From positions 8,184,001 to 8,248,000 of the forward strand of contig CM102286.1 in the NCBI GenBank assembly GCA_046563655.1: DNA of 64,000 nucleotides, given 5' to 3'. The position numbers and the translations under genes were made by a program. The notes below the pieces were generated by a model that worked only from the letters and a program-made list of their open reading frames with translations, did no database searches and was not told the DNA's origin. This document shows positions 1 to 64,000 of this stretch, piece after piece; position 1 is the first letter of the stretch; each line of letters starts with the position of its first letter. This DNA comes from Yuukianura sp. NJ FZ-2021. Lineage: Eukaryota.

Positions 1-3000
1 CGTCAAGCGTTGCTTACGGTGAAGTTACAGTATCGTCAATGCCTAGCTAAGCAATGTGGATTTGCATATTAAGGTTAGGGCCAAGTTACAGTGATAAATA
101 CATTGATATCAAACAAATATTACACCGGTACAAAATTTAAATTTTGCAGCCTTCCCATGAGCTTCCACAGATGTTTAATGAAATGAAATTTTTTGGCTGA
201 AAATTTTAACCGAAACCGTGACCACTTACATGTCAAGCGTTGCGTACAGTCAAGTTACAGTAGCGTCAATGCCTTGCTAAGCAATGTGGATTTGCATATT
301 AAGGTTAGTGCCAAGTTACAGTGATAAATACATTGATATCAAACAAATATTACACCGCTACAAAGTATAAACTTTTCAGCCTTCCCATGAGCTTCCACAG
401 ATATTTAATGAAATGAAATTTTTTAGCTGAAAGTTTTAACCGACAACGTAACCACTTACACGTCAAGCGTTGCTTACGGTGAAGTTACAGTATCGTCAAT
501 GCCTAGCTAAGCAATGTGGATTTGCATATTAAGGTTAGGGCCAAGTTACAGTGATAAATACATTGATATCAAACAAATATTACACCGCTACAAAGCGAAA
601 ACTTTTCAGCCTTCCCATGAGCTTCCACAGTTGTTTAATGAAATGAAATTTTTTAGCTGAAAGTTTTAACCGACAACGTAACCACTTACACGTCAAGCGT
701 TGCGTACAGTGAAGTTACAGTATCGTCAATGCCTAGCTGGGCAATGTGGATTTGCATATTAAGGTTAGAGCCAAGTTACAATGATAAATACATTGATACC
801 AAACAAATATTACACCGGTACAAAATTTAAATTTTGCAGCCTTCCCATGAGCTTCCACAGATGTTTAATGAAATGAAATTTTTTGGCTGAAAATTTTAAC
901 CGAAACCGTGACCACTTACATGTCAAGCGTTGCGTACAGTCAAGTTACAGTAGCGTCAATGCCTTGCTAAGCAATGTGGATTTGCATATTAAGGTTAGTG
1001 CCAAGTTACAGTGATAAATACATTGATATCAAACAAATATTACACCGCTACAAAGTATAAACTTTTCAGCCTTCCCATGAGCTTCCACAGATATTTAATG
1101 AAATGAAATTTTTAGCTGAAAGTTTTAACCGACAACGTAACCACTTACACGTCAAGCGTTGCTTACGGTGAAGTTACAGTATCGTCAATGCCTAGCTAAG
1201 CAATGTGGATTTGCATATTAAGGTTAGGGCCAAGTTACAGTGATAAATACATTGATATCAAACAAATATTACACCGCTACAAAGTATAAACTTTTCAGCC
1301 TTCCCATGAGCTTCCACAGATATTTAATGAAATGAAATTTTTTAGCTGAAAGTTTTAACCGACAACGTAACCACTTACACGTCAAGCGTTGCTTACGGTG
1401 AAGTTACAGTATCGTCAATGCCTAGCTAAGCAATGTGGATTTGCATATTAAGGTTAGGGCCAAGTTACAGTGATAAATACATTGATATCAAACAAATATT
1501 ACACCGCTACAAAGCGAAAACTTTTCAGCCTTCCCATGAGCTTCCACAGATGTTTAATGAAATCAAATTTTTTGGCTGAAAGTTTTAACCGAAACCGTGA
1601 CCACTTACATGTCAAGCGTTGCGTACAGTCAAGTTACAATATCGTCAATGCCTAGCTAAGCAATGTGGATTTGCATATTAAGGTTAGGGCCAAGTTACAA
1701 TGATAAATACATTGATACCAAACAAATCTTACACCGGTACAAAATATAAATTTTTCAGCCTTCCCATGAGCTTCCACAGTTGTTTAATGAAATGAAATTT
1801 TTTAGCTGAAAGTTTTAACCGACACCGTGACCACTTACACGTCAAGCGTTGCGTACAGTGAAGTTACAGTATCGTCAATGCCTAGCTGGGCAATGTGGAT
1901 TTGCATATTAAGGTTAGAGCCAAGTTACAATGATAAATATTACACCGGTACAAAATTTAAATTTTGCAGCCTTCCCATGAGCTTCCACAGATGTTTAATG
2001 AAATGAAATTTTTTGGCTGAAAATTTTAACCGAAACCGTGACCACTTACATGTCAAGCGTTGCGTACAGTCAAGTTACAGTATCGTCAATGCCTAGCTAA
2101 GCAATGTGGATTTGCATATTAAGGTTAGGGCCAAGTTACAGTGATAAATACATTGATATCAAACAAATATTACACCGCTACAAAGCGAAAACTTTTCAGC
2201 CTTCCCATGAGCTTCCACAGATGTTTAATGAAATCAAATTTTTTGGCTGAAAGTTTTAACCGAAACCGTGACCACTTACATGTCAAGCGTTGCGTACAGT
2301 CAAGTTACAATATCGTCAATGCCTAGCTAAGCAATGTGGATTTGCATATTAAGGTTAGGGCCAAGTTACTATGATAAATACATTGATACCAAACAAATCT
2401 TACACCGGTACAAAATATAAATTTTTCAGCCTTCCCATGAGCTTCCACAGTTGTTTAATGAAATGAAATTTTTTAGCTGAAAGTTTTAACCGACACCGTG
2501 ACCACTTACACGTCAAGCGTTGCGTACAGTGAAGTTACAGTATCGTCAATGCCTAGCTGGGCAATGTGGATGTGCATATTAAGGTTAGAGCCAAGTTACA
2601 ATGATAAATATTACACCGGTACAAAATTTAAATTTTGCAGCCTTCCCATGAGCTTCCACAGATGTTTAATGAAATGAAATTTTTTGGCTGAAAATTTTAA
2701 CCGAAACCGTGACCACTTACATGTCAAGCGTTGCGTACAGTCAAGTTACAGTAGCGTCAATGCCTTGCTAAGCAATGTGGATTTGCATATTAAGGTTAGT
2801 GCCAAGTTACAGTGATAAATACATTGATATCAAACAAATATTACACCGCTACAAAGTATAAACTTTTCAGCCTTCCCATGAGCTTCCACAGATATTTAAT
2901 GAAATGAAATTTTTTAGCTGAAAGTTTTAACCGACAACGTAACCACTTACACGTCAAGCGTTGCTTACTGTGAAGTTACCGTATCGTCAATGCCTAGCAA

Positions 3001-4504
3001 AGCAATGTGGATTTGCATATTAAGGTTAGGGCCAAGTTACAGTGATAAATACATTGATATCAAACAAATATTACACCGCTACAAAGCGAAAACTTTTCAG
3101 CCTTCCCATGAGCTTCCACAGATGTTTAATGAAATCAAATTTTTTGGCTGAAAGTTTTAACCGAAACCGTGACCACTTACATGTCAAGCGTTGCGTACAG
3201 TCAAGTTACAATATCGTCAATGCCTAACCAAGCAATGTGGATTTGCATATTAAGGTTAGGGCCAAGTTACAGTGATAAATACATTGATATCAAACAAATA
3301 TTACACCGCTACAAAGCGTAAACTTTTCAGCCTTCCCATGAGCTTCCACAGATGTTTAATGAAATCAAATTTTTTGGCTGAAAGTTTTAACCGAAACCGT
3401 GACCACTTACATGTCAAGCGTTGCGTACAGTCAAGTTACAATATCGTCAATGCCTAGCTAAGCAATGTGGATTTGCATATTAAGGTTAGGGCCAAGTTAC
3501 AATGATAAATACATTGATACCAAACAAATCTTACACCGGTACAAAATATAAATTTTTCAGCCTTCCCATGAGCTTCCACAGTTGTTTAATGAAATGAAAT
3601 TTTTTAGCTGAAAGTTTTAACCGACAACGTAACCACTTACACGTCAAGCGTTGCGTACAGTGAAGTTACAGTATCGTCAATGCCTAGCTGGGCAATGTGG
3701 ATTTGCATATTAAGGTTAGAGCCAAGTTACAATGATAAATACATTGATACCAAACAAATATTACACCGGTACAAAATTTAAATTTTGCAGCCTTCCCATG
3801 AGCTTCCACAGATGTTTAATGAAATGAAATTTTTTGGCTGAAAATTTTAACCGAAACCGTGACCACTTACATGTCAAGCGTTGCGTACAGTCAAGTTACA
3901 GTAGCGTCAATGCCTTGCTAAGCAATGTGGATTTGCATATTAAGGTTAGTGCCAAGTTACAGTGATAAATACATTGATATCAAACAAATATTACACCGCT
4001 ACAAAGTATAAACTTTTCAGCCTTCCCATGAGCTTCCACAGATATTTAATGAAATGAAATTTTTTAGCTGAAAGTTTTAACCGACAACGTAACCACTTAC
4101 ACGTCAAGCGTTGCTTACGGTGAAGTTACAGTATCGTCAATGCCTAGCTAAGCAATGTGGATTTGCATATTAAGGTTAGGGCCAAGTTACAGTGATAAAT
4201 ACATTGATATCAAACAAATATTACACCGCTACAAAGCGAAAACTTTTCAGCCTTCCCATGAGCTTCCACAGATGTTTAATGAAATCAAATTTTTTGGCTG
4301 AAAGTTTTAACCGAAACCGTGACCACTTACATGTCAATCGTTGCGTACAGTCAAGTTACAATATCGTCAATGCCTAACCAAGCAATGTGGATTTGCATAT
4401 TAAGGTTAGGGCCAAGTTACAGTGATAAATACATTGATATCAAACAAATATTATGCCGGTACAAAGTATAAGTTTTTCAGCCTTCCCATGAGCTTCCACA
4501 GATG
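1..4504. repeat. Satellite A, 230-bp tandem array (~20 monomers, open at window start)
   Basis: The monomer recurs every 230 bp (e.g. ORF-track copies at 3042 and 3272). Two monomers (~1940 and ~2610) have a 19-bp deletion. The array stops abruptly at ...gagcttccacagatg. Confidence 0.98.
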
Positions 4505-4897
4505 AAGTGTCCTTGTGTTCCCCCCCCCCCCCATTTAGGTTAGGGTCATTTGCCTTTGAGGTTAAGGTGTGGCCCTAGATTAGTGCTAGGTTCGTGTAGT
4601 TAGCGTAGTGAGATTTGGTTTAGCGTTTTAGCGCGAGTTTTTGAGAGAGAGACAGAGTCAGGAGAGTATTGGGACTAGTTGTGCTAGTCAGTCGGGTTTT
4701 GGTGTTCGTATCAGCAAGAGCTGATGATCTGTATTTTAGTGTACAAATAAATATCTTTTATATTTCTTTGTCCTCGAGTCTTCGTGTCGGTTTTTGGTGT
4801 CCCTTATGGTCCTCAGTTTCGTTGCATGAGTCCGGCAGTGTTCGGATCATAGTCTGGAGGCCATCTTTGGCAGTTTGTCGTAGCACGAGGTGCTACA
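4503..4897 (+). repeat. Putative 5' LTR (~395 bp)
   Basis: Starts TGAAG at the satellite junction and ends CTACA, an imperfect terminal inverted repeat. AATAAA at ~4746. Followed after 2 nt by TGGCGAGCGTG. No second LTR is present to confirm the ends; an alternative end is 4954. Confidence 0.6.
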
Positions 4898-4899
4898 CA

Positions 4900-4910
4900 T
4901 GGCGAGCGTG
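4900..4910 (+). promoter_or_regulatory. Putative primer binding site TGGCGAGCGTG (resembles tRNA-Arg-type PBSs)
   Basis: TGG lies 2 nt after the LTR-terminal CA. The tRNA assignment is from recalled similarity only. Confidence 0.55.
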
Positions 4911-5192
4911 TTGTGAGTTCAAAGGCTGAGGTCAGAGGTCATGGAGTAACAACATTTGGTGAGCGTTTAAAAACTATTGTTCTGTGTCCACTGGAATCAA
5001 GACATCATGTAATTGTTCGTGTGTGGACTTTACCCTTGTTCAAAAGGGAAGTGGCCATAATTCAGAAGTGGATCATCTGTAAATTTTGTACATAGAAGGA
5101 GGAAGTTGCCGAAACAACTTCCATTGGATCCACTCCATGTCCGACAGAAAACCAGTAAGTAAAGATTAAAAAATCTTGAAATTGATCCTACA

Positions 5193-6996
5193 GTGACATT
5201 CAAGCTACCAGAGCTTAGTCCTACATCAGATTCGGAAGGATCGTTCCACCGAAGTCAAGAAAGTAAGATTCCAACTCCAATTACATCACCTAAAATCATC
5301 GTCACTGCTCCAGGTTCGTCAGTAACCATGGCAACGTACACCAAGGAGGATGTGGACAGATTGCTGGCTGAGGCCGTGGCCCATGCCGTGCGCGGCGTGG
5401 AGCAGAGATTAGTTCAGAGGGTGACCGGTGAAGTCGCTGCGGTGACTTCTGCCCCTGCGGAGGCAGAACCAGTTGGTCAGACCCACGAATTGATAACAGC
5501 ATTGAAAAGCATCAAGTTCACATCTTTATCATCTAAATTGCCTGTGCCGAGTTTTGATCCAAAGAAGATGTCAGCGGCAGGCTACCTTAATGAAGTAGAG
5601 CGTTACTTCACAGCTCAAGGACACGAGCAAAGGCAATTTCTTTATCTTGTAAAGACGGTCTTGCCTGTGGAATCTCATCCATGGCTCGACCACATCTTAG
5701 TGACGGTGACAGACTGGGATTCATTCAAAGAAGCTTTTATCAGCAGATATGATAATTGGACGGATGTTGCAGAGCGGACAAAACTTCTGCACACAAGAAG
5801 GCAACAGTTCCATGAGTCTATTGTATTTTATTTGTATGATGTGGTTCGGTACTCCAGATTAATATATCCACATCAGTCAGTGGCTGATGCAGTGCTACGT
5901 GCTAAATTATGTTTGAATCCGCGGATTCGCACAGCCCTAGGAACTCAACAATTTGACACAGTGGAATCACTTTGATGCATGTAAAATTGCTCATGCTAAT
6001 CTCACCGCAGAAGATAGAATCACAAAAAACAAATTTGGTTTACCTCCAATTGTCAAGGTCGACTCAAAGTCAGAGTCAGTCAATGTTGAAAATACCAAAC
6101 AAGATTAGATTAGACACTTATAATTATGATGCAATTTATGATTCATTGCTTGTTCTAAATCACTAATTAAGATCTAGGACTTTATAACGTAATTAAGAAT
6201 AAGGAACAGGAATTGGTAACCTATAAATAATTAGGTTGTTAGTACAAGGTTATTCTTTGTGTATAATTTGTTAGAACCAGGAACCAGGAAAATAGTTATA
6301 AGGTCAGTTCTGACGTACACTCTAGGAAGAATAACGTTTTAGTTAAGGTCACTAGGAAATGACTAGTGTTGTTTCTAAGTTACTTGGTTAGTATAAATAC
6401 TAGTTACCTAGATTACTAAAAGTAGTAGTGCCTCGTGGAATTTTGATGTAACAACTTTATTTGTTATAAATAAAACTTACAGAAAATCCAAGTTCAGTTG
6501 TGTAGTTTGTGTGGCGTTTATTAAATAATTTCAACAGTCAAGAAAGATGATAATTCCACTAATTCGAATGCTGGAAGTTCTGCTGGAACTTCCAATTGGA
6601 ATAATTGGTTTCGTGGGAAGGAAGCCAAAAATAATGGCTTCCGTGGACACTGGAAAGGCAAGGGAAATGGCTACAAGAATTATTCCAGTGCTCGATCTCC
6701 GACCAATGGAAGTCCGAACGGTGGACATTCCTCATCTCAACCCAATGACCAGTCACAAGGTCAAAGTTCAGAACCAAATTATGACAAAAATTCAGTGCAG
6801 CCTCAAAATGAATCGTCTGCTCGTGGGAAAGGCGGTTATCGTGGTAATCGTGGTTCTTCAAATGACAATGACCGTGGTGGTGGTCTAGGCAGAGGTCAAG
6901 GTCAGACCTGTAGGCAGGATTTAAGTGATGTTCAGTGCTTCAAGTGTAATGGTTATGGGCATCGTAAGGTTCAGTATCCATCAGGTGTTGGTTTGG
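5193..6996 (+). pseudogene. gag: Retrotransposon Gag, disrupted
   Basis: Capsid-like motifs (VPSFD...YLNEVERYF...W...DWDSFKEAFISRY...RRQ...ESI..Y). Frameshift at ~5973. Solo LTR inserted at 6084; removing it restores the frame (SESVKKDDNS). Gly/Arg/Asn-rich region, then degenerate knuckle CFKCNGYGHRKVQY (last Cys replaced by Tyr). Confidence 0.85.
6084..6536 (+). mobile_element. Solo LTR (453 bp) of a second LTR retrotransposon family (Copia- or BEL/Pao-like termini)
   Basis: Termini TGTTGAAA...TTTCAACA form a perfect 8-bp inverted repeat. 5-bp TSD GTCAA at 6079-6083 and 6537-6541. AT-rich interior with TATAAATA and AATAAA on the + strand. Confidence 0.92.
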
Positions 6997-7017
6997 AAAA
7001 GTGCAGATCAATTCAAC

Positions 7018-10000
7018 ATGACATCACCCACTAGACAACAAAACTGCCCCCTCAACAATCCGTTAGAAAGTGTAGTATTTTGGAATTTAGGAGGAATGAA
7101 CAAATTATATGACTTTGACAAATTTGAAAGTGCCAAAATGTCCAACTTCCAAGTGATTTGCCTCACAGAAACCTGGACAACAACGTCCCCACCCTCACTA
7201 CCCCCCTCCCTAAGTGACATGTTCTCAACAGACTCTCCCGCAATTAGGACAGCAGAAGTGGGACGGAGTAGTGGTGGTGTTCTAACTCTCTCCAAAAATC
7301 CACACACAAAACTTATAAAACACCCCAACTGGACATTTACCCGCCACCCCTTCACTCACTCACAATTCATCATCATCGGCAACGTATACATACCCCCATA
7401 CCCAGCCTACGACTATCTACTACAAAATCTGCAGCAAGTCCTTGAGCTTCTAGCAGAAGAATACCCTCAAGACCAATTACTAGTTGGTGGAGATTTTAAT
7501 GCTAGAATCGGAGAATTGAACATTACCCCAACGGACCAGCCATACCCAACCTTCCCAACCCACCGTGCGGCCCTTGACAAAAAAATTACACCAAGAGGGC
7601 GACAACATTTAGACATGATGGCATCGCAAAACCTAACTGTAACAAATGGACGCTTCCCCAGTGACTCACCCGGACATTTCACTTTCATTTCCAGAGCAGG
7701 AAAATCCACCATTGACCTAGTTTTCGGTAGCGAAAGTATCATCTCTAAAATAATTGACATCACAATCCCGGAAAAAGAGCTGACAGGACACTTTCCAGTC
7801 GCAGTTCACTTCTCTCCCCCCTCTCCTCCATCATCACTTCCAATAAACAAACCCCAATGGGTGGAAGAACATCGCTCCACATACCAAACTCTTATCTCAC
7901 AAAAACTGTCAATGCAAGAACCAAACACCATTCATGAATTCATGTCAATGATCAAGTCAGCAGCAAAAGAGTCTGGTATGTGGGCCAACATTTGTTCAAC
8001 TCACACAAGAGACCCACGTTGGTTTGACAAGGAATGTAGAGCAGCATCCAAAGTTATGAAATCATCACTCTCCAAGGCGAAAGCAAAAAATTGGGAACCA
8101 GAACTGCGCAATGACTACATCACAAAGAAAAAATCCCTCAACAACCTCATCAAAAAGAAAAAGAAAATTTATGCAACAAATCTTAAAGCCAGAATATCAG
8201 ATTGCAAGCACCCCACAGAATTTTGGAAATCCATCAACTCGATCCGCCGTAAATCACAATTTCAATGCCCTCTCTCACTGAAGGATTGGGAAGACTTTTA
8301 TGACTCGACGATGACCACACCCTCTTCCACGCCCCCTCCACTCGTCATCCACGATGCCACACACCCCAAACTGGACTTACCCTTCACACGGAAAGAAATT
8401 AAAAATGTACTCAAGTCCCTCAACAGAAACAAAGCCCCCGGACCAGACCAAATCACGAATGAATTCCTTCAAGCCCTGCCACAAGACGCCGTGGACACCC
8501 TCCAAATCCTACTCAACAAAATTCTGGAAAGCGGCATCATCCCAAATGAATTCTGCAGAAGCGAAACAATCCATCTATATAAAAAAGGCAACAAAACAGA
8601 CCCCTTAAACTACAGACCTATCACACTGGCTAACTGCATTGGCAAAATTTTTTCTAGCCTTTTGTACAACCGACTCTCCGAATGGAGTGAAGTTAACCAC
8701 GTGCTACCAGAAACACAAGGAGGATTTAGAAGACACCGCGGCTGCCTGCAACACATCTTCACCCTCAATGCCGCCATCCAACTAGGCACCAGACAAAAGA
8801 GGAGAGTCTTCGCTCTATTCATTGACTTCGCAAGGGCATTCCCTTCAATTCCACACACTCGCCTCTGGACCACCTTACACGAATTAGGAGTGAGCGGTCA
8901 GTTTATTCGTCTTCTCACCTCCCTCTACCAACAAAATCAAACGACCTTTCAAACTTCAGAAGGCCCGACGAAACCATATCACTTCACCAAAGGTGTCATG
9001 CAAGGGGACCCCCTCAGTCCACTTCTCTTCAACCTTTACATCGCAAAAATGAATTTCGCCATTCACCGCCAAGCCACAACCGGAGGAATTATAATCGACC
9101 CAGACACCCGCCTCCACATCCTTCAATACGCTGACGACACCGTAATCCTCGCCTCAAACCGCGTTGACCTTGAACGAAAAATACTTTGGCTGACAGACTA
9201 CTTTGATGACATGGAGCTGACTGTCAACCTCGCCAAGACAAATATCGTCATATTTCAGCGACAAGGCAGAAGGCCCTCCCCGAAATTCTACTTCAAACAT
9301 CAACCGATCCGCATAACAAACAGTTACACATAACCTTGGTGTCCCCTTCTGCTCATCCACACTCTTCGCACAAACTACTCAGACCTTCTGCGCAAAAGCA
9401 AAAGCAGCGACATCAAAAGTTTGGGAAATACTATGTCGTGGAAGAAATGACTCAATCTCCTCGTCACTCAAACTTTTTGACTCCATCATCAGCTCAACCC
9501 TCCTCTATGGCGCAGGCGTCTGGGGCCTACGATACACTGATCAACTTGAAGTAATTCAAACGCAGTTCCTACGACGGCTCCTCTCCCTGGACTACTACAC
9601 ACCCAACTACATGATCAGACTAGAATGTGGACGCCAACATCTACTTTACAAAGTACTTACACTCGCCCTCCGCCTCTGGAAGTCAATCAAAATCATGAAC
9701 ACAAGCCGTTTGGCTAAAAAATGTTACGATGCCCTAGCCGCAGAAGACGTCGCCAACTCGTCGCCAACCCTGATCCAAGGTACAACTGGGTATCTCAACT
9801 GAAACATCTGCTAAACCTAACCGAGACCTACGACATAAATCCAGAAGATGACCCAACAGCCCTAAAAAAGCGTTGGAGTGGACTCATGATCCATCTTGAA
9901 TCGCACTCACGAGCCTCAGACACCATAAGGGCCCAGGACTCAACGAGAAACTCATACTACCAACACATCATACCGCAGAACCCTGCGCCTGCGCAGTATC

Positions 10001-10362
10001 TCCTAACCAACATCAGCCTCCGTGACAAACGCCAAATTGCAGAAATTCGCCTAAATAGCAAATTTTTACGACTGGGCAAAGACTACATCCAATTAGAGCG
10101 CGAAAAAACATGCCCACTATGTAATCTAAATGAAGAAGACTCCATCTTTCATCTGCTCAGCAAATGCCCCCTCACAAGAAACCAGTACTATATGAATCTC
10201 ACAACACAATCCAACGACCCCCAGCTCCACTTCTTCATCTCATTCAAACAACTTAATACTGCTGAAAACTGCAATTCCATTCTACGAATCATCAGGCCAT
10301 CGCTCTCCAGCCGGAAATTCCAACAAGAATTATGTGAGGACGTTGAATGGCTAAATGCTTAA
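7018..10362 (+). pseudogene. LINE ORF2 (APE endonuclease + reverse transcriptase + CCHC finger), ~1110 aa when repaired
   Basis: APE motifs WNLGG, LTETW, NVYIPP, GDFNA, IDLVF. RT motifs KAPGPD, YRPITL, QGGFR, FIDFARAF, QGDPLSPLLF, QYADD, YLG. Two lesions: a +1 A at ~9332 (TAC to TAAC in YTYLGVPF) and an 11-bp tandem duplication at 9748-9769. Confidence 0.95.
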
Positions 10363-10443
10363 AAAATCCCCATCAACAGTCAAAAGCAGTCAGTCTTACA
10401 CACAAGTCACAACTCACAACAGTCCCTCCCAGCACAAATAGCC

Positions 10444-10929
10444 ATGAACCTCCGCCATCTTCTCCTCATTGTTAGTCTCACACAAGCAATTGTCCAGTCC
10501 AATGCCAGAATCGGATGGAAACCACCCGCCACCTCGGACAATCCAACACCTTCCGGTCTGACGACATTTCTTAGCGGCATCAAGTCACTTTTTGGAATGG
10601 GCTCCGACTTCCTCAGGCGCATGGGCTACAGGTACGACGACGTGTACAGTGACCAGCTCATGATGACGTCATTGAACACCTACGAAAACGACCTACAACG
10701 CGCAGAAGAAGTGAAACAGGGAGACATAATGCAACAGGATCTGCAGCTGGACAGCTTTTACCTAACGATGATCTGCTCATTTCTTGGAATCATCACCGCA
10801 ATTCTACTTGCTCTCGCCTGCATCCGAGGCCACGACTCTTACGCTACCTGGAATGAAAGACGCAGACGCAAGACCATCGATGACTTTACCCGCCAAGAGG
10901 AACTGAAGACCATTGCATCCAAACTCTAA
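10444..10929 (+). CDS. LINE-borne extra ORF: 161-aa predicted type I membrane protein of unknown function
   Basis: gccATGa start context. Hydrophobic N-terminus ending S-N-A (aa 1-21), TM segment aa 105-127, RRRRK aa 139-143. Lies 81 nt after the ORF2 stop and ~190 nt before the poly(A) tail. Confidence 0.8.
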   Translation: MNLRHLLLIVSLTQAIVQSNARIGWKPPATSDNPTPSGLTTFLSGIKSLFGMGSDFLRRMGYRYDDVYSDQLMMTSLNTYENDLQRAEEVKQGDIMQQDLQLDSFYLTMICSFLGIITAILLALACIRGHDSYATWNERRRRKTIDDFTRQEELKTIASKL

Positions 10930-11074
10930 ACCCCCCAACATCTTCATAACGTTTCAGACAAAAACTTTTCTGTAACTTTCAATTTCTTCACACTGTCTAC
11001 AAAACCCCCCGCAACCACAAATTAACATTCAAACTGAATTAGAACTTAGTAACACTTTATTAATACTCGAACCC

Positions 11075-11133
11075 CCTTCCCATGGGCTACGAGCCCGAGG
11101 GGGAAGGTAATTAACTAATAAAAAAAAAAAAAA
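11075..11133 (+). other. LINE 3' terminal stem-loop, polyadenylation signal and poly(A) tail
   Basis: CCTTCCC (11075-11081) pairs with GGGAAGG (11101-11107), enclosing GGGCT-ACG-AGCCC. AATAAA at 11117-11122 runs into A14 (11120-11133). Confidence 0.8.
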
Positions 11134-12518
11134 TTTGTTGGCCAATATTTTATACTGTAGAATAAATAACGCAACCACGGACCATTATCTTTCGTAAAAC
11201 ATATCGAGAAATTTTTACCCTGAAAGTTGACAGCGCGATGTTTCTAAAAAATTAAAAATAGATAGGTGATGCTGGCATAACTTACTTTGTCTCGATCGCG
11301 TAGTTCGCTCCGGAAAAGTCCCGTTGTAGTTTGAGGGCCGGGAAGAAGCATTTTTGAGTTTGTGAATTTTATCACACGCACCCTTAAAATTTTGCCAAGC
11401 AGTGAAGAAAAGGTCTTGGTTATTTCCATTGGTATCGAACTAATTATCAGTGCAGAATGCAGCTTGCTACTGCAATTCCCGGTAGTATTTTGGTTCATAT
11501 TTTTCAAGTGTAGCACTAGTAGGGTTTTTGAGCCTACTTCTAGTCGCCTTTCTGTACACTCTAATTTTATAGTCATGCGAACTACGAAGGGAAGCAAAGT
11601 GTGTCGCAGAAGAAGCGGAAATTTGTTGGCCAATATTTTATACTGTAGAATAAATAACGCAACCACGGACAATTATCTGTCGTAAAACATATCGAGAAAT
11701 TTTTACCCTGAATGTTGACAGCGGGATGTTTCTAAAAATTTAAAAATAGATAGGTGATGCTGGCATAACTTACGTTGCCTCGATCGCGTAGTTGGCTCCG
11801 GAAAAGTCCCGTTGTAGTTTGAGGGCCGGGAAGAAGCATTTTTGAATTTGTGAATTTTATCACACGCACTCTTAAAATTTTGCCAAGCAGTGAAGAAAAG
11901 ATCTTGGTTATTTCCATTGGTATCGAACTAATTATCAGTGCAGAATGCAGCTTGCTACTGCAATTCCTGGTAGTGTTTTGGTTCAAATTTTTCAAGTGTA
12001 GCACTAGTAGGTTTTTTGAGCCTAGTTCTAGTCGCCTTTCTGTCCACTCTAATTTTATAGTCATGCGAACTACGAAGGGAAGCAAAGTGTGTCGCAGAAG
12101 AAGCGGAAATTTGTTGGCCAATATTTTATACTGTAGAATAAATAACGCAACCACGGACCATTATCTTTCGTAAAACATATCGAGAAATTTTTACCCTGAA
12201 AGTTGACAGCGGGATGTTTCTAAAAATTTAAAAATAGATAGGTGATGCTGGCATAACTTACGTTGCCTCGATCGCGTAGTTGGCTCCGGAAAAGTCCCGT
12301 TGTAGTTTGAGGGCCGGGAAGAAGCATTTTTGAGTTTGTGAATTTTATCACACGCACCCTTAAAATTTTGCCAAGCAATGAAGAAAAGGTCTTGGTTATT
12401 TCCATTGGTATCGAACTAATTATCAGTGCAGAATGCAGCTTGCTACTGTAAATCTCGGTAGTATTTTGGTTCATATTTTTCAAGTGTAGCACTAGTAGGG
12501 TTTTTGAGCCTACTTCTA

Positions 12519-54129: not shown

Positions 54130-55200
54130 CTTTTGCAACTTTTATCGTCTGTATCTCTGTAACCGTAGATCAAAGGTCAAGGTCACATTTAGAAAAGTTG
54201 TTCAGCCTAATGCGATAAACAACTTTTGTAGAGGTCATTTTCCCCGATTTCCGTCATTAAAGTATTTGACCTTGACATTTGACCTGGACAACCTAAGCTG
54301 GACACTAATTAGACACCCCTGGAACATGTGAAGCGCAAATGTGAAGACAGATTGAAAATCGCTCCAGTGGTTCTGGAGTTATAAACGCGAATATCACGAG
54401 TGACCCTATTATGCAACTTCTAAGGTCTATATCTCCAGAACCCCAGGTCAAAGGTCAAGGTCACCTATACAAAAGTTGTTCGAATGGATGAGATGGATAA
54501 CTTTTGTAAGGGTCATTTTCCCCATTTCCGTCAAAAGTGTATTTGACCTTGACCTTTGACCTGGACCTGGACAACATCTGGTCAAGCTGGACACGGATTA
54601 GACACCCCTGGAACATGTGAAGCGCAAATGTGAAGACAGATTGAAAATCGCTCCAGTGGTTCTGGAGTTATAAACGCGAATATCACGAGTGACCCTATTA
54701 TGCAACTTCTAAGGTCTATATCTCCAGAACCCCAGGTCAAAGGTCAAGGTCATCTATACAAAAGTTGTTCGTATCGATGAGATGGATAACTTTTGTAAGG
54801 GTCATTTTCCCCATTTCCGTCAAAAGTGTATTTGACCTTGACCTTTGACCTGGACCTGGACAACTTCCGGTCAAGCTGGACACTCATTAGACACCCCTGG
54901 AACATGTGAAGCGCAAATGTAAAAACAGATTGAAAATCGCTCCAGTGGTTCTGGAGTTATAAACGCGAATATCACGAGTGACCCCATTATGCAACTTCTA
55001 AGGTCTACATCTCCAGAACCCCAGGCCAAAGGTCAAGGTCACCTATACAAAAGTTGTTCGTCTTGATGAGATGAATAACTTTTGTAAGGGTCATTTTCCC
55101 AAGTTCCGTCAAAAATGTACTTGACCTTGACCTTTGACCCTTAAGGGGTCTACTTCCGGCCAAGTGGGTCACCGATTGTTCACCCCCAGACCATGTCAAG
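54130..55200. repeat. 289-bp central tandem repeats of the DINE-like element (~3.5 copies)
   Basis: AGACACCCCTGGAACATGTG at 54311, 54600 and 54889. Confidence 0.9.
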
Positions 55201-55258
55201 TTCATCTGTAAAGACAGATTGAAAATCGGTCCAGCGGTTCCAGAGCTAGCTTGACCAG

Positions 55259-56017: not shown

Positions 56018-56085
56018 GCAGATATCTCATCATCCCAATCCTCGCATCCTGCGCTGAAATCTCCGATTCAGGAGTTATTTGAAAA

Positions 56086-56646
56086 TTTCCAATCAACGAA
56101 TTCTCGCTGCAGAGATTTGTCAAAAACAATTTCGAATTAAGGAATTCTCACTTCAGAGACTCGTCAAAACAATTTCCAATTAAGGAATTCTCACTTCAGA
56201 GATTTGTCAAAACAATTTCCAATTAAGGAATTCTCAATTCAGAGACTTGGCAAAAACAATTTCCAATTGAGGAATTCTCACATCAGAGATTTGTCAATAA
56301 ACAATTTCCAATTAAGGAATTCTCACTTAGAGATTTGGCAAAAACAATTTCCAATTAAGGAATTCTCACTACAGAGATTTGCCAAAACAATTTCCAATTA
56401 AGGAATTCTCACTACAGAGATTTGCCAAAACAATTTCCAATTAAGGAATTCTCGCTTCAGAGATTTGTCAAAACAATTTCCAATTAAGGAATTCTCAATT
56501 CAGAGATTTGTCAAAAACAATTTCGAATTACGGAATTCTCAATTCAGAGATTTGTCTAGAACAATTTCCAATTAAGGAATTCTCAATTCAGAGATCTATC
56601 AAAAACAATTTCCAATTAAGGAATTCTCAATCCAGAGATTTGTCAA
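56086..56646. repeat. 43/44-bp minisatellite, ~13 copies
   Basis: Unit TTTCCAATTAAGGAATTCTCAxTxCAGAGATTTGxCAAAA(A)CAA. Confidence 0.95.
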
Positions 56647-56837
56647 CTTCAACTCTTTGAAAGATTGATTGAACAAAAAATTGATGCCGATCTCACGTTC
56701 CCCCGTATCACAAAACATGTCTCAAATCACTCTTTCGTTCCTCCCACAAAACAAAGGAAGCAAACGACCTGCCGAATCGGATCCTAACAACGGAAGCGAA
56801 CCATGCTCAAAAAGATCAAATGTCTCGAATGAAGATG

Positions 56838-58005
56838 TTTATCAGTAAAACACTCCGAAAATCAGAAATTCGGTACCACATTTACGAAAACGAGTTGTTC
56901 GCGATTATTTGGGCCTACCGGAAGCTCAGAAGTTCACAATTATTACTGACAACAAAGCCTTATCATTCCTCAACAAGATGAAGGAGCGGAAATCAAAATT
57001 GGCTTTGTGGGATACGGAGATCAAGTCATGGGGTGTTGAAGTCAAGCATCTCTCCGGGAAGGATAATCCGGAGGCGGACGCGCTTTCACGTGCTCCAGTT
57101 CCTGTTGATGTAGCGGATCTCGATTTTGAAGATGATTCCCCGGCGTACATGTACTCGCCAACTGCAGTGGCGTTACTGTCGTTTGATACTCCTACAATCC
57201 AGAAGATGAAAGTCGAACAACGAAAAGATGCTGATTTAGTGAACGTGATGAGTGACATTGAAAGTGGTAAAAGTGTTAAAAGTTACGTCCTAAAGAATGG
57301 CGTACTAGGAAGAGAAGTCAAGGGATTTGACTTCTATTCCGATAACGGCTTCTGCGGAAACTTTATCAAGGGGCGATGTGCGGAAACGAGGCCTCAATCT
57401 TATACATCACTCTAGAGGACGTTGACAAAAAAGAGTTCAGCAGTTCCTCAGCTCGTAAAAGTGAGCCCATTCAGGTGCCAGTGGTACCAAGGGTCATGAT
57501 ACCCGAAATAATGAAGTTACTACATGATGTGCCAGAAGCCGCGCATCTTGGCATCAAAACCACAAAAGTGAAAATCTAGAGAAGATTTTTCTGGAAAAAC
57601 ATGAATAAGGACATCAGTGATTATGTGAAATCTTGTCCAGTTTGCCAAGCAGTCAAGTCTTGCAACTACAAGCCCTTTGGATTACTACAAGCAGTGTCGC
57701 CTCCAACTAAAGTGTTTGAGAAAATCTACATTGATTTTCTAGGGCCCCTGCCGAGAAATCAACATGAGTATTTATTCGTCGTGGAGGACGATTTAACCAA
57801 GTGGGTGGAGTTATTCCCGATGCGGAAAGCAAAATCGAAAAAAGTTGTGGAAGTGTTAGTGGATGAAATTTTTTGTCGTTATGATACTCCGAAGACAGTT
57901 GCCTCGGATAATGGAAGCCAATTTCTCTCCAAAGTGATGATTAAGATGGCTAAGGACTGGAAGATCAACCATGTTCCTGTAAGTCCGTACCATGCGCAAG
58001 CTAAC
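56838..58005 (+). pseudogene. pol: Ty3/Gypsy pol remnant: RNase H C-terminal half and integrase (HHCC + partial DDE core)
   Basis: FISKTLRKSEIRYHIYENELFAIIWA (a frame not in the ORF track), then KFTIITDNKAL...GKDNPEADALSR, HDVPEAAHLG...FFWKNM...CPVCQ and IDFLGPLP...SDNGSQF...SPYHAQAN. The RNaseH-then-integrase order fits Gypsy. It has frameshifts, a premature TAG at 57577, and is cut by satellite C before the catalytic Glu. Confidence 0.93.
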
Positions 58006-58007
58006 AC

Positions 58008-61000
58008 CGGGAAATTCCTATAAGCATGTATATGTTCAAAAACAGCATGAAATTGTATTACCTTAATTTGTTGTTCGTATGTGCAACGGCGGAACACTTT
58101 TTGGTTTCAGCGAATGGAGACCCCTCATAGTGTCACTCAAGGTGCACAGGAATAACAATAGGCTATAAAAGCTGAACATAGGTTGCGCACTATTCGGCAA
58201 GATGAACCCAAAGACGAAGGTATGACCACGGGAAATACCTATAACGCATTTATTTGTTCCAAAAACAGCATGAAATTGTATTACTTTAATTTGTTGTTCG
58301 TATGTGCAACGACGGAACACTTTTTGGTTTCAGCGAATGGAGACCCCTCATAGTGTCACTCAAGGTGCACAGGATTAACAATATGCTATAAAAGCTGAAC
58401 CTAGGTTGCACACTATTCGGCAAGATGAAGCCAAAGACGAAGGTATGACCACGGGAAATTCCTATAACGCATTTATTTGTTCCCCCACAGCATGAAATTG
58501 TATTACTTTAATTTGTTATTCGTATGTGCAACGGCGGAACACTTTTTGGTTTCAGCGAATGGAGACCCCTCATAGTGTCACTCAAGGTGCACAGGAATAA
58601 AAATGTGCTATAAAAGCTGTAGATATGTTGAACACTATACGGCAAGATGAACCCAAAGACGAAGTTATGACCACAGGATATCCCTATAACGCATTTATTT
58701 GTTACAAAAACAGCATGAAATTGTATTACTTTAATTTGTTGGTGGTATGTGCAACGGTGGAAAACTTTTTGGTTTCAGCGAATGGAGATCCCTCATAGTG
58801 TCACTGAAGGTGCACAGGAATAAAAATGTGCTATAAAAGCTGAACATAGGTTGCACACTATACGGCAAGATGGACCCAAAGACGAAGTTATGACCACAGG
58901 ACATCCCTATAACGCATTTATTTGTTCCAAAAACAGCATGAAATTGTATTACTTTATTTGGTTGTTCGTATGTGCAACGACGGAACACTTTTTGGTTTCA
59001 GCGAATGGAGACCCCTCATAGTGTCAGTCAAGGTGCACAGGAATAAAAATGTGCTATAAAAGCTGTAGATATGTTGAACACTATACGGCAAGATGAACCC
59101 AAAGACGAAGTTATGACCACAGGATATCCCTATAACGCATGTATTTGTTACAAAAACAGCATGAAATTGTATTACTTTAATTTGTTGGTGGTATGTGCAA
59201 CGGTGGAAAACTTTTTGGTTTCAGCGAATGGAGATCCCTCATAGTGTCACTGAAGGTGCACAGGAATAAAAATGTGCTATAAAAGCTGTAGATATGTTGA
59301 ACACTATACGGCAAGATGAACCCAAAGACGAAGTCATGACCACAGGAAATCCCTATAACGCATTTATTTGTTCCAAAAACAGCATGAAATGGTAATACTT
59401 TAATTTGTTGTTCGTATGTGCAACGGCGGAACACTTTTTGGTTTCAGCGAATAGAAAACCCCCATAGTGTCACTCAAGGTGCACAGGAATAACAATATGC
59501 TAAAAAAGCTGAACATAGGTTGCACACTATACGGCAAGATGAACCCAAAGACGAAGGTATGACCACGGGAAATTCCTATAACGCAATAACGCATTTATTT
59601 GTTCCCCCACAGCATGAAATTGTATTACTTTAATTTGTTATTCGTATGTGCAACGGCGGAACACTTTTTGGTTTCAGCGAATGGAGACCCCTCATAGTGT
59701 CACTCAAGGTGCACAGGAATAAAAATGTGCTATAAAAGCTGTAGATATGTTGAACACTATACGGCAAGATGAACCCAAAGACGAAGTCATGACCACAGGA
59801 AATCCCTATAACGCATTTATTTGTTCCAAAAACAGCATGAAATGGTAATACTTTAATTTGTTGTTCGTATGTGCAACGGCGGAACACTTTTTGGTTTCAG
59901 CGAATAGAAAACCCCCATAGTGTCACTCAAGGTGCACATGAATAACAATGTGCTATAATAGCTGTACATATGTTGCACAATATTCGGCAAGATGAACCCG
60001 AACAAGAAGGTAAGACCACAGGAATTCCCTATAAAGCATTTGTTTATTCCCCCCACAGCATGAAATTGTATTACTTTATTTGGTTGTTCGTATGTGCAAC
60101 GACGGAACACTTTTTGGTTTCAGCGAATGGAGACCCCTCATAGTGTCACTCAAGGTGCACAGGATTAACAATATGCTATAAAAGCTGAACCTAGGTTGCA
60201 CACTATTCGGCAAGATGAAGCCAAAGACGAAGGTATGACCACGGGAAATTCCTATAACGCATTTATTTGTTCCCCCACAGCATGAAATTGTATTACTTTA
60301 ATTTGTTATTCGTATGTGCAACGGCGGAACACTTTTTGGTTTCAGCGAATGGAGACCCCTCATAGTGTCACTCAAGGTGCACAGGAATAAAAATGTGCTA
60401 TAAAAGCTGTAGATATGTTGAACACTATACGGCAAGATGAACCCAAAGACGAAGTTTTGACCACAGGATATCCCTATAACGCATTTATTTGTTCCAAAAA
60501 CAGCATGAAATTGTATTACTTTAATTTGTTGTTGGTATGTGCAACGGTGGAACACTTTTTGGTTTCAGCGAATGGAGATCCCTCATAGTGTCACTGAAGG
60601 TGCACAGGAATAAAAATGTGCTATAAAAGCTGTAGATATGTTGAACACTATACGGCAAGATGAACCGAAAGACGAAGTCATGACCACAGGAAATCCCTAT
60701 GACGCATTTATTTGTTCCAAAAACAGCATGAAATGGTAATACTTTAATTTGTTGTTCGTATGTGCAACGGCGGAACACTTTTTGGTTTCAGCGAATAGAA
60801 AACCCCCATAGTGTCACTCAAGGTGCACATGAATAACAATGTGCTATAATAGCTGTACATATGTTGCACAATATTCGGCAAGATGAACCCGAACAAGAAG
60901 GTAAGACCACAGGAATTCCCTATAACGCATTTGTTTATTCCACCACAGCATGAAATTGTATTACTTTATTTGGTTGTTCGTATGTGCAACGACAGAACAC

Positions 61001-64000
61001 TTTTTGGTTTCAGCGAATGGAGACCCTCATAGTGTCACTCAAGGTGCACAGGAATAACAATATGCTATAAAAGCTGAACATAGGTTGCACACTATACGGC
61101 AAGATGAACCCAAAGACGAAGTTATGACCACAGGACATCCCTATAACGCATTTATTTGTTCCAAAAACAGCATGAAATTGTATTACTTTATTTGGTTGTT
61201 CGTATGTGCAACGACGGAACACTTTTTGGTTTCAGCGAATGGAGACCCCTCATAGTGTCAGTCAAGGTGCACAGGAATAAAAATGTGCTATAAAAGCTGT
61301 AGATATGTTGAACACTATACGGCAAGATGAACCCAAAGACGAAGTTATGACCACAGGATATCCCTATAACGCATTTATTTGTTACAAAAACAGCATGAAA
61401 TTGTATTACTTTAATTTGTTGGTGGTATGTGCAACGGTGGAAAACTTTTTGGTTTCAGCGAATGGAGATCCCTCATAGTGTCACTGAAGGTGCACAGGAA
61501 TAAAAATGTGCTATAAAAGCTGTAGATATGTTGAACACTATACGGCAAGATGAACCCAAAGACGAAGTCATGACCACAGGAAATCCCTATAACGCATTTA
61601 TTTGTTCCAAAAACAGCATGAAATTGTATTACTTTATTTGGTTGTTCGTATGTGCAACGACGGAACACTTTTTGGTTTCAGCGAATGGAGACCCCTCATA
61701 GTGTCAGTCAAGGTGCACAGGAATAAAAATGTGCTATAAAAGCTGTAGATATGTTGAACACTATACGGCAAGATGAACCCAAAGACGAAGTTATGACCAC
61801 AGGACATCCCTATAACGCATTTATTTGTTCCTAAAACAGCATGAAATTGTATTACTTTATTTGGTTGTTCGTATGTGCAACGACGGAACACTTTTTGGTT
61901 TCAGCGAATGGAGACCCCTCATAGTGTCAGTCAAGGTGCACAGGAATAAAAATGTGCTATAAAAGCTGTAGATATGTTGAACACTATACGGCAAGATGAA
62001 CCCAAAGACGAAGTTATGACCACAGGATATCCCTATAACGCATTTATTTGTTACAAAAACAGCATGAAATTGTATTACTTTAATTTGTTGGTGGTATGTG
62101 CAACGGTGGAAAACTTTTTGGTTTCAGCGAATGGAGATCCCTCATAGTGTCACTGAAGGTGCACAGGAATAAAAATGTGCTATAAAAGCTGTAGATATGT
62201 TGAACACTATACGGCAAGATGAACCCAAAGACGAAGTCATGACCACAGGAAATCCCTATAACGCATTTATTTGTTCCAAAAACAGCATGAAATGGTAATA
62301 CTTTAATTTGTTGTTCGTATGTGCAACGGCGGAACACTTTTTGGTTTCAGCGAATAGAAAACCCCCATAGTGTCACTCAAGGTGCACATGAATAACAATG
62401 TGCTATAATAGCTGTACATATGTTGCACAATATTCGGCAAGATGAACCCGAACAAGAAGGTAAGACCACAGGAATTCCCTATAAAGCATTTGTTTATTCC
62501 CCCCACAGCATGAAATTGTATTACTTTATTTGGTTGTTCGTATGTGCAACGACGGAACACTTTTTGGTTTCAGCGAATGGAGACCCCTCATAGTGTCACT
62601 CAAGGTGCACAGGAATAAAAATGTGCTATAAAAGCTGTAGATATGTTGAACACTATACGGCAAGATGAACCCAAAGACGAAGTCATGACCACAGGAAATC
62701 CCTATAACGCATTTATTTGTTCCAAAAACAGCATGAAATGGTAATACTTTAATTTGTTGTTCGTATGTGCAACGGCGGAAAACTTTTTGGTTTCAGCGAA
62801 TAGAAAACCCCCATAGTGTCACTCAAGGTGCACATGAATAACAATGTGCTATAATAGCTGTGCATATGTTGCACAATATTCGGCAAGATGAACCCGAACA
62901 AGAAGGTAAGACCACAGGAATTCCCTATAACGCATTTGTTTATTCCCCCCACAGCATGAAATTGTATTACTTTATTTGGTTGTTCGTATGTGCAACGACG
63001 GAACACTTTTTGGTTTCAGCGAATGGAGACCCCTCATAGTGTCACTCAAGGTGCACAGGAATAACACTATGCTATAAAAGCTGAACACAGGTTGCACACT
63101 ATACGGCAAGATGAACCCAAAGACGAAGTTATTACCACAGGACATCCCTATAACGCATTTATTTGTTCCAAAAACAGCATGAAATTGTATTACTTTATTT
63201 GGTTGTTCGTATGTGCAACGACGGAACACTTTTTGGTTTCAGCGAATGGAGACCCCTCATAGTGTCACTGAAGGTGCACAGGAATAAAAATGTGCTATAA
63301 AAGCTGTAGATATGTTGAACACTATACGGCAAGATGAACCCAAAGACGAAGTCATGACCACAGGAAATCCCTATAACGCATTTACTTGTTCCAAAAACAG
63401 CATGAAATGGTAATACTTTAATTTGTTGTTCGTATGTGCAACGGCGGAACACTTTTTGGTTTCAGCGAATGGAAAACCCCCATACTGTCACTCAAGGTGC
63501 ACAGGAATAAAAATGTGCTATAAAAGCTGTAGATATGTTGAACACTATACGGCAAGATGAACCCAAAGACGAAGTCATGACCACAGGAAATCCCTATAAC
63601 GCATTTATTTGTTCCAAAAACAGCATGAAATGGTAATACTTTAATTTGTTGTTCGTATGTGCAACGGCGGAACACTTTTTGGTTTCAGCGAATAGAAAAC
63701 CCCCATAGTGTCACTCAAGGTGCACATGAATAACAATGTGCTATAATAGCTGTACATATGTTGCACAATATTCGGCAAGATGAACCCGAACAAGAAGGTA
63801 AGACCACAGGAATTCCCTATAACGCATTTGTTTATTCCCCACAGCATGAAATTGTATTACTTTATTTGGTTGTTCGTATGTGCAACGACGGAACACTTTT
63901 TGGTTTCAGCGAATGGAGACCCCTCATAGTGTCACTCAAGGTGCACAGGAATAACAATATGCTATAAAAGCTGAACATAGGTTGCACACTATACGGCAAG
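58008..64000. repeat. Satellite C, 223-bp tandem array (~27 monomers, open at window end)
   Basis: 223-bp period (ORF-track copies at 62749, 62972, 63195, 63418). Several recurring monomer variants; one 7-bp duplication near 59580. Confidence 0.98.

Follow-up and report, generated by a model that had tools for sequence, protein, structure and literature searches.

Two genes, ORF1 and ORF2, are on the prevailing view all that a LINE requires, and its movement is confined to the cell; membrane proteins of the env type typify LTR elements and retroviruses. The env-like ORF3s of LTR elements (errantiviruses/gypsy, and the small transmembrane-bearing ORF3s of the rotifer Vesta) are extra reading frames past the reverse transcriptase gene, whose products combine a fusion-peptide-like hydrophobic segment, a coiled-coil-like helix and a C-terminal transmembrane anchor. 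Two kinds of viral protein offer further points of comparison. FAST proteins are small (~100-200 aa), single-pass, N-out/C-in proteins with a membrane-active motif in the ectodomain and a membrane-proximal polybasic cluster on the cytoplasmic side; they carry an N-myristate or a juxtamembrane palmitoyl-cysteine and have no cleavable signal peptide, their transmembrane segment being a reverse signal-anchor. Class I fusion proteins possess two heptad-repeat regions, which come together in a trimeric six-helix bundle.

For LINEs themselves, the sole accessory function described earlier with a membrane or lipid link is the esterase (SGNH) ORF1 of CR1, L2 and RTEX, for which a membrane or lipid role in transposition has been proposed (PMC5408684, citing Schneider 2013). 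In searches of the open full-text literature, no account of a transmembrane ORF3 in a non-LTR element came to light: the env-like and other ORF3s found there belong to LTR and Penelope-like elements only, and the LINE case is the ORF1 esterase.

Here we describe a LINE copy that carries a third reading frame, ORF3, downstream of ORF2. An earlier, sequence-only reading of this locus had likened the product of an extra reading frame, by analogy alone, to small viral fusogens. Our main result goes beyond that reading: ORF3 belongs to the conserved make-up of a LINE lineage. Its product is very probably a conserved, LINE-encoded membrane protein. Like the LTR env-like frames, it lies past the reverse transcriptase gene and shows the same three kinds of segment, but its carrier is a LINE without a capsid-forming gag, protease or integrase, and with ~140 mature residues it has no viral glycoprotein homology, furin site or Cys pattern. 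From the SGNH ORF1, a soluble enzyme domain encoded upstream of pol, it differs as a non-enzymatic, predicted integral membrane protein encoded downstream.

A LINE copy with a third reading frame

The window (the whole 64,000-nucleotide stretch of DNA that was analysed) holds a LINE sandwiched by two satellites, one of 230 bp (2-4504) and one of 488/458 bp (11131-53895). The window is repeat-rich eukaryotic DNA, with more repeats beyond 53895. The parts of the element are as follows:

4654..11133, + strand: non-LTR (LINE) retrotransposon copy, identified by the Pfam APE and RT domains in ORF2 and by the poly(A) tail
somewhere in 4505-4654, + strand: 5' boundary of the LINE
5163..7034, + strand: ORF1 region, gag-like by translation; a degenerate CCHC knuckle lies close to the end of the region
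6925..10362, + strand: ORF2, with APE endonuclease and reverse transcriptase domains (Pfam), then a Cys/His domain at the C-terminus
10444..10929, + strand: ORF3 (161 codons and a stop), predicted to encode a type I single-pass membrane protein (translation, homology, hydropathy)
11075..11107, + strand: conserved two-tier 3' hairpin, just ahead of the tail (shared motif, folding)
11120..11133, + strand: poly(A) tail of 14 A, visible in the sequence, which marks the 3' end of the LINE

The element is a LINE by its contents: ORF2 encodes an APE-type endonuclease and a reverse transcriptase (RVT_1 1.8e-31, Exo_endo_phos_2 3.4e-9, Exo_endo_phos 4.9e-7 in Pfam), there are no LTRs, and an A tail closes the 3' end. 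The closest database ORF2s are just 33-34% identical and have no RNase H, which appears in remoter ones. In ORF1, the zf-CCHC match (E=0.063) stayed below the Pfam cut-off. Contigs from the same sample diverge from the window upstream of 4654, and within the ORF1 region they skip 6077-6534. No second copy of any part of the LINE was found elsewhere in the window, and Rfam returned nothing for 4500-11300 but one sub-threshold miRNA match.

This copy is probably dead, since its ORF1 is broken by stops between 5976 and 6524 and its ORF2, which ends in a TAA at 10360-10362, is spread over three frames (6925-9333, 9317-9802 and 9718-10362) by two frameshifts; a homologue on one metagenome contig (L001, below) covers the same ORF2 segments in a single unbroken frame. 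ORF3 starts 81 nt past the ORF2 stop and ends 145 nt ahead of the 3' hairpin, and is followed by a 3' UTR of 190 nt. Its 161-aa translation contains every motif listed in the sequence-only reading, and the interval on which that reading had focused, 10555-10872, corresponds exactly to ORF3 residues G38 to K143.

Linkage to LINEs and selection on ORF3

A phmmer search against 1.84 billion representative proteins gave 19 matches at E<=1e-3, 10 of them at E<=1e-10. Eighteen are true relatives of ORF3, 78-180 aa long and aligned over the same domains, with an architecture common to the 14 full-length ones. The top match, P0034 (4564 aa), sums 35 weak stretches without sharing this architecture, and was left out of the family count because it is a repeat-summed artefact. 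Word-indexed searches found 0 matches among 71 candidates with the single ORF3 protein, and 2 with the ORF3 profile, both of them known members already.

Scanning metagenomes with a six-member ORF3 alignment, we recovered nine loci that encode ORF3 relatives (L001-L009), drawn from two metagenome data sets only, seven of them from one, and equal in several cases to the representative proteins above. The single match in a scan of viral contigs (L010) was dismissed as chance, being a 36-residue similarity within a phage structural gene beside the portal gene. With pieces of the window ORF2 as tblastn queries, an ORF2 homologue was detected directly upstream of ORF3 and on the same strand in L001, L003, L004, L005 and L007. 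These make up 5 of the 7 loci that extend 600 nt or more upstream of ORF3; Pfam placed RVT_1 (9.3e-22) in the upstream ORF of L001 and an endonuclease domain in that of L003. In the remaining two, L006 and L008, ORF3 and the hairpin are present but no ORF2 precedes them, as would be the case in 5'-truncated LINE copies. L002 has ~300 nt of upstream sequence only, and L009 starts within ORF3.

On the other side of ORF3, 120-280 nt past its stop, the window and 8 of the 9 loci share the motif CCAUGGGC...GCCCGA(A/G)GGG; the contig of the ninth, L003, stops too early for it. The window hairpin folds at -20.9 kcal/mol (z -2.8), and when sequences were folded singly the same two-tier hairpin formed in 6/7 (z -2.0 to -3.1), L001 being weaker. 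The outer stem varies in sequence between elements and keeps its pairing, and RNAalifold on a MAFFT alignment of the 3' ends returned a weak consensus (-0.46 kcal/mol) because of indels. Behind the hairpin, A-rich tails follow in L001, L004, L007, L008 and L009. With ORF2 upstream, and the hairpin and A tail downstream, across loci, ORF3 is therefore internal to the LINE, between ORF2 and a 3' recognition-type hairpin.

In the window, ORF3 is in frame with ORF2 behind a single TAA, an arrangement that would allow a read-through fusion of the two; we rejected this reading, as the loci differ in frame and each ORF3 has its own Met and signal. Both the frame of ORF3 relative to ORF2 and the length of the spacer (~22 to 370 nt) differ among loci, and each copy has its own Met and hydrophobic N-terminus, so that ORF3 is a separate cistron.

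The ORF3 sequences bear the marks of purifying selection. Internal stops occur in none of the ten DNA copies (the window and nine loci), and by the Nei-Gojobori method the 14 closest pairs gave pN of 0.21-0.45 against pS of 0.71-0.92, with synonymous sites saturated in 13 of these 14 pairs. Over the same 10 element pairs, mean identity was 0.33 for ORF3 vs 0.28 for the C-terminal domain of ORF2, which is 23-37% identical across elements; by this measure the conservation of ORF3 equals that of the ORF2 domain. The pairwise identities of the two genes were uncorrelated (Spearman -0.09, 10 pairs) and thus give no sign of co-divergence. In contigs of one sample (3 DNA runs), no divergent copies over ORF3 were seen. 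ORF3 is a genuine, selectively maintained third gene of a LINE lineage.

These data bear on two explanations that would deny ORF3 a role. According to one, it is a passenger, a host gene or fragment captured once by the LINE and idle in its life cycle; in its favour are ESM Atlas look-alikes of ORF3, which include arthropod 'hypothetical protein' clusters of similar size (0.88-0.90, leads only). A useless gene would be expected to decay in a LINE lineage, yet ORF3 is intact in 10/10 copies with pN far below pS, in elements whose ORF2 C-termini are only 23-37% identical, and we consider a passenger very improbable. According to the other, ORF3 is a chance reading frame in a T-poor 3' UTR and no protein is made from it, as one might suspect from the A/C-rich + strand, the off-frame ORFs of ~100 codons elsewhere in the element and the otherwise degenerate copy. 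However, when the 771 nt at 10363-11133 were shuffled 5000 times by mononucleotides, an ATG-to-stop ORF of at least 161 codons arose only 4 times, and the 18 homologues, the linkage to ORF2 and the nine loci intact under purifying selection effectively refute a chance frame, whose probability we regard as negligible.

Predicted architecture of the ORF3 protein and its conservation

The protein divides into five segments beside a linker:

10444..10506, + strand: residues 1-21, signal-peptide-like hydrophobic segment (hydropathy; helix 3-17 in the model)
10555..10626, + strand: residues 38-61, Gly-rich amphipathic helix-turn-helix, helices 36-50 and 53-59 (moment, model, conservation)
10627..10755, + strand: residues 62-104, stalk helix with a heptad-periodic conserved stripe, itself largely polar (alignment, model)
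10756..10827, + strand: residues 105-128, transmembrane helix (Kyte-Doolittle)
10828..10926, + strand: residues 129-161, cytoplasmic tail with the basic cluster RRRRK at 139-143 (alignment, charge)

We predicted the topology from hydropathy, the positive-inside rule and an AlphaFold2 model. The Kyte-Doolittle profile has a hydrophobic N-terminus and one transmembrane segment at ~105-128, where the 19-residue mean rises to 2.68. The AlphaFold2 model, based on a 21-row alignment (mean pLDDT 81), consists of a signal helix at 3-17, disorder at 20-34, two further helices (36-50 and 53-59), and then an unbroken helix spanning 64-160, in which pLDDT exceeds 90 from ~70 onward. Together with the charge distribution, these features suggest a type I single-pass membrane protein with, in predicted order, a cleavable signal peptide, a variable linker, a membrane-distal helix-turn-helix, a stalk running into the transmembrane helix, and a basic tail. 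The mature ectodomain would measure ~84 aa, and the 38-61 segment would start ~17 residues past the predicted signal cleavage site.

To describe conservation we used 21 aligned members, 17 of them full-length and 4 N-terminally incomplete. Mean pairwise column identity was 0.40 in the amphipathic segment and 0.42 in the stalk, against 0.23 in the transmembrane helix, 0.24 in the tail, 0.20 in the signal and 0.14 in the linker, making the ectodomain (0.40-0.42) about twice as conserved as the transmembrane helix and tail. A signal-like N-terminus is present in all 17 full-length members (9-residue Kyte-Doolittle maximum 2.0-3.7).

The amphipathic Gly-rich helix proposed in the sequence-only reading was borne out. 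Residues 38-61 (GLTTFLSGIKSLFGMGSDFLRRMG) include the highest Eisenberg moment of ORF3 (18-residue window, 100 degrees), 0.59 at residues 42-59, a value matched by 8 of 2000 shuffles of that segment. The equivalent segment is significantly amphipathic in 17/17 members (moment 0.36-0.59, attained in 3-69 of 2000 shuffles), and its key residues are strongly kept (F42 and G51 in 17/17, F56 in 15/17).

The helical polar stalk likewise held up, as a conserved part of the long model helix. Conservation along residues 62-110 is periodic: its moment at the coiled-coil angle of 102.9 degrees was reached by 0 of 5000 shuffles and that at 100 degrees by 20 of 5000, with no signal at 80, 90, 110 or 120 degrees. 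The resulting stripe comprises Y64, Y68, Q71/L72, N78, N82, Q85, E89, Q92, D99 and D103, many of which are nearly or fully invariant (Y64 in 17/18, Y68 and L72 in 18/18, N78 in 20/20, N82 in 19/20, Q85 and Q92 in 20/21, D99 in 18/21).

The transmembrane helix is kept in 21/21 members (Kyte-Doolittle maxima 2.14-3.47), as the earlier reading would have it. The polybasic RRRRK on which it had also remarked is conserved in character and not in sequence: the ~22 residues after the membrane are net positive in 17/17 members, at +1 to +9 with 4-10 K/R, and the basic cluster starts ~10 residues beyond the transmembrane helix. Farther along the tail, a motif of the form I-x-(D/E)-(Y/F)-x-R-x-x-E-L-K is kept loosely in the family (L154 in 14/17).

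Other proposals of that reading did not survive the comparison with homologues. Cys111 is found in just 10/21 members and sits in the outer half of the transmembrane helix, Cys126 is found in just 2/21, and the C-terminal -ASKL is unique to the window ORF3, with one relative ending in -ASKV; the ideas of palmitoylation and of a PTS1-like end therefore fall. A peroxisomal-type reading of -SKL was rejected also for a protein with a signal peptide and a transmembrane helix. C-termini are V, L or I in 9/21 members and have the form X-S/T-X-hydrophobic, which is that of PDZ ligands, in 5/21. Altogether, helix, stalk, transmembrane segment and basic charge recur among the homologues, and with them a fusion-machinery-like architecture is conserved through the family.

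Candidate roles of the ORF3 protein

Homology to FAST proteins, or to any other fusogen or env, was detected neither by sequence nor by fold (Pfam, PDB, Foldseek), in agreement with the sequence-only reading, which had seen none. In Pfam, neither the window protein nor any of the 21 members scored above a family cut-off; the best viral-model match in Foldseek had E=1.7 and was no FAST protein, and Foldseek found nothing in PDB; PHROGs returned only 2 weak single-member matches; and the ORF3 ectodomain alone, compared with named ESM Atlas clusters, yielded nothing usable.

The analogy to FAST proteins drawn in that reading holds in part. ORF3 is small, single-pass and predicted to be N-out/C-in, with a hydrophobic or amphipathic ectodomain motif and a cytoplasmic basic cluster. 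However, a signal-like N-terminus, absent from FAST proteins, is present in 17/17 ORF3 members; the ectodomain is ~84 aa long vs ~20-40 aa; the basic cluster stands ~10 residues from the membrane; and there is no conserved acylation site (Cys126 in 2/21, no N-terminal Gly on the mature chain). ORF3 falls outside the FAST proteins on three points, namely its predicted signal peptide, acylation and homology.

The likeness to class I fusion proteins such as influenza HA2 lies in the succession of a Gly-rich amphipathic helix-turn-helix, a heptad helix with a polar core, a transmembrane segment and a short tail, and a Gly/Phe-rich hydrophobic segment near the mature N-terminus is a putative fusion peptide. 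In contrast to class I proteins, the ORF3 model has a single long helix (64-160) with no second heptad region, and there is no receptor-binding subunit or priming cleavage site; the absence of the second heptad region places ORF3 outside the class. A homotrimer prediction for residues 36-161, run with neither alignment nor controls, scored 0.01, a value that speaks neither for nor against a trimer.

The one-sided, heptad-periodic stripe resembles a helix-helix interface, and could, with the transmembrane helix, bind a host membrane protein (a channel, a receptor or a secretory-pathway factor) to the advantage of the element, in the manner of KCNE proteins or small viral proteins. The best and only PDB match of the ORF3 profile was indeed KCNE2 (2m0q), a single-pass K+ channel subunit and itself a small type I protein, at borderline strength (E=0.0029, 20 bits), aligning profile positions 76-148 with chain residues 21-95 (juxtamembrane helix, transmembrane segment and start of the tail), and the V/L/I C-termini and PDZ-ligand forms noted above would suit such a modulator. 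Yet the match does not include the invariant N78, N82 and Q85 and reflects mostly transmembrane and juxtamembrane composition, the full tables of 7 members show no match to the KCNE (ISK_Channel) Pfam family, and KCNE proteins are products of host genes, not of retroelements. As the C-terminal motif is not universal either, and the membrane-distal amphipathic helix would be left unexplained, we rate host-factor modulation as distinctly unlikely. A viroporin-like channel, in which copies would assemble through stalk and transmembrane helix to form a pore and so change the ionic balance of a compartment, would account for the small size, the single pass, the long continuous helix and a stripe of N, Q, D and E that could line a vestibule. 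Within the membrane, however, the same face is hydrophobic, poorly conserved (0.23) and devoid of polar pore-lining residues, and such a channel is very unlikely.

The distribution of conservation bears most directly on where ORF3 acts. If the protein did not leave the ER or the nuclear envelope and its tail held the ribonucleoprotein (ORF1p, ORF2p and RNA), it could serve assembly or nuclear entry with no fusion or cell-to-cell transfer. The basic cluster, positive in 17/17 members, and the loose tail motif could bind RNA or ORF1p, and a membrane or lipid role has been proposed for the esterase ORF1 of CR1, L2 and RTEX (PMC5408684). A purely cytosolic tether predicts that the tail be the most conserved part, but the ectodomain outconserves both tail and transmembrane helix, and tethering would leave both the amphipathic helix and the invariant residues of the luminal part without a role; we therefore hold tethering to be unlikely, though worth keeping in view.

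Since conservation in the ectodomain is about double that in the transmembrane helix and tail, the luminal or extracellular part is the one through which ORF3 most probably acts on a membrane. An env-like role is favoured because this most constrained domain contains two modules of the kind found in fusion machinery. Against it stand the single long ectodomain helix, which lacks the second heptad region needed for a class I hairpin, and the dissimilarity in sequence and fold to any known fusogen or env; moreover, LINEs are not known to form enveloped particles. That ORF3 is specifically membrane-fusing or env-like is doubtful taken by itself. The whole reading that we put forward, a selected LINE ORF3 encoding a type I membrane protein that serves as an env-like or fusogen-like accessory, is tentative, its chances falling somewhat short of even.

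In the mechanism proposed under this env-like reading, the Gly/aromatic helix-turn-helix would enter or disturb a lipid bilayer, the heptad stripe would serve to oligomerise the protein or to switch its conformation, and the cytoplasmic tail would contact the LINE ribonucleoprotein. ORF3 would then be an env-like or fusogen-like accessory with which the ribonucleoprotein may pass through or exit from a membrane, carried in vesicles or from cell to cell. Stated in its strongest form, ORF3 would be the first env-like gene of a non-LTR element, a type I fusogen of ~140 residues that moves LINE ribonucleoproteins through vesicles or fused cells, which we think improbable as it stands.

A secretory-pathway membrane protein kept under purifying selection implies that some step in the life cycle of these LINEs is membrane-dependent. 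The compact invariant set (F42, G51, Y68, L72 and N78, with N82, Q85 and Q92 nearly so) makes ORF3 directly testable by mutagenesis. Should that step be fusion or vesicle transfer, LINEs would have a means of spreading from soma to germline and horizontally, between individuals and species, without a capsid, and a very small fusogen of novel sequence would join the kinds already known; should it be tethering or host modulation, ORF3 would still represent a new class of LINE accessory protein.

Sequences surrounding the LINE

The non-LTR retrotransposon copy (LINE) lies between two different satellites, with the 230-bp array on its 5' side and the 488-bp array on its 3' side, where the array begins at the poly(A) of the element. 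These arrays, together with the other repeats of the window and a retrotransposon remnant, are as follows (window coordinates):

2-4504, 230-bp satellite, tandem array
11131-53895, 488-bp satellite array with a 458-bp variant, about 43 kb
54134-55240, 289-bp repeat, tandem array
56084-56646, 43-bp minisatellite, tandem array
56685-58023, + strand, fragment of an LTR-retrotransposon pol gene, identified by Pfam domains
58010-64000, 223-bp satellite, tandem array

ORFs of 107-140 codons recur in the 488-bp monomers on both strands, and are probably meaningless. The pol fragment matches RT_RNaseH (1e-7), Integrase_H2C2 (2.3e-9) and rve (5e-14), with its reading split across several frames.

Depth and rearranged copies in the same sample

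Comparing the window with contigs from DNA sequencing runs of one sample, we found that the 5' UTR/ORF1 part of the LINE was approximately ten-fold deeper than the ORF2/ORF3 part, with k-mer depths of ~750-2250 (4560-6980) and ~115 (6980-11150), respectively. The 5' part was covered by numerous short divergent contigs, and may be common to a far more abundant, possibly non-autonomous, repeat. Rearranged copies were also present among these contigs: some carried a 6076->6535 junction, lacking 458 nt of the interrupted ORF1 (6077-6534), and one divergent contig joined 9588 to 11037, such that 9589-11036 was missing, and with it the whole of ORF3 and the last part of ORF2.

ORF3 and its relatives

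Class I PDZ ligands follow the C-terminal rule X-S/T-X-hydrophobic. Across the 21 aligned members of the ORF3 family, the final residue was V, L or I in nine, and five C-termini (-SKL, -SKV, -SEV, -TEV and -SYV) matched the class I form. Among the metagenome loci encoding ORF3 relatives, L003 (1038-3165) holds a LINE relative with an internal deletion, in which the endonuclease domain of ORF2 almost directly abuts the post-RT segment; ORF3 is intact despite the missing RT core. At a further locus, L009, a caspase-domain ORF was detected ~1.6 kb downstream of a LINE 3' end:

L009:1934-2434, - strand, caspase-domain ORF (Peptidase_C14, 2e-12)

This suggests that the metagenome contig derives from a eukaryotic, probably animal, genome.

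The two-tier 3' hairpin

A two-tier 3' hairpin is kept in the window (11075-11107) and at eight of the metagenome loci, with an outer-stem sequence that varies from element to element. An Rfam search of window positions 4500-11300 returned no match to this hairpin, which probably serves as the RT recognition element of this ORF3-bearing LINE lineage.
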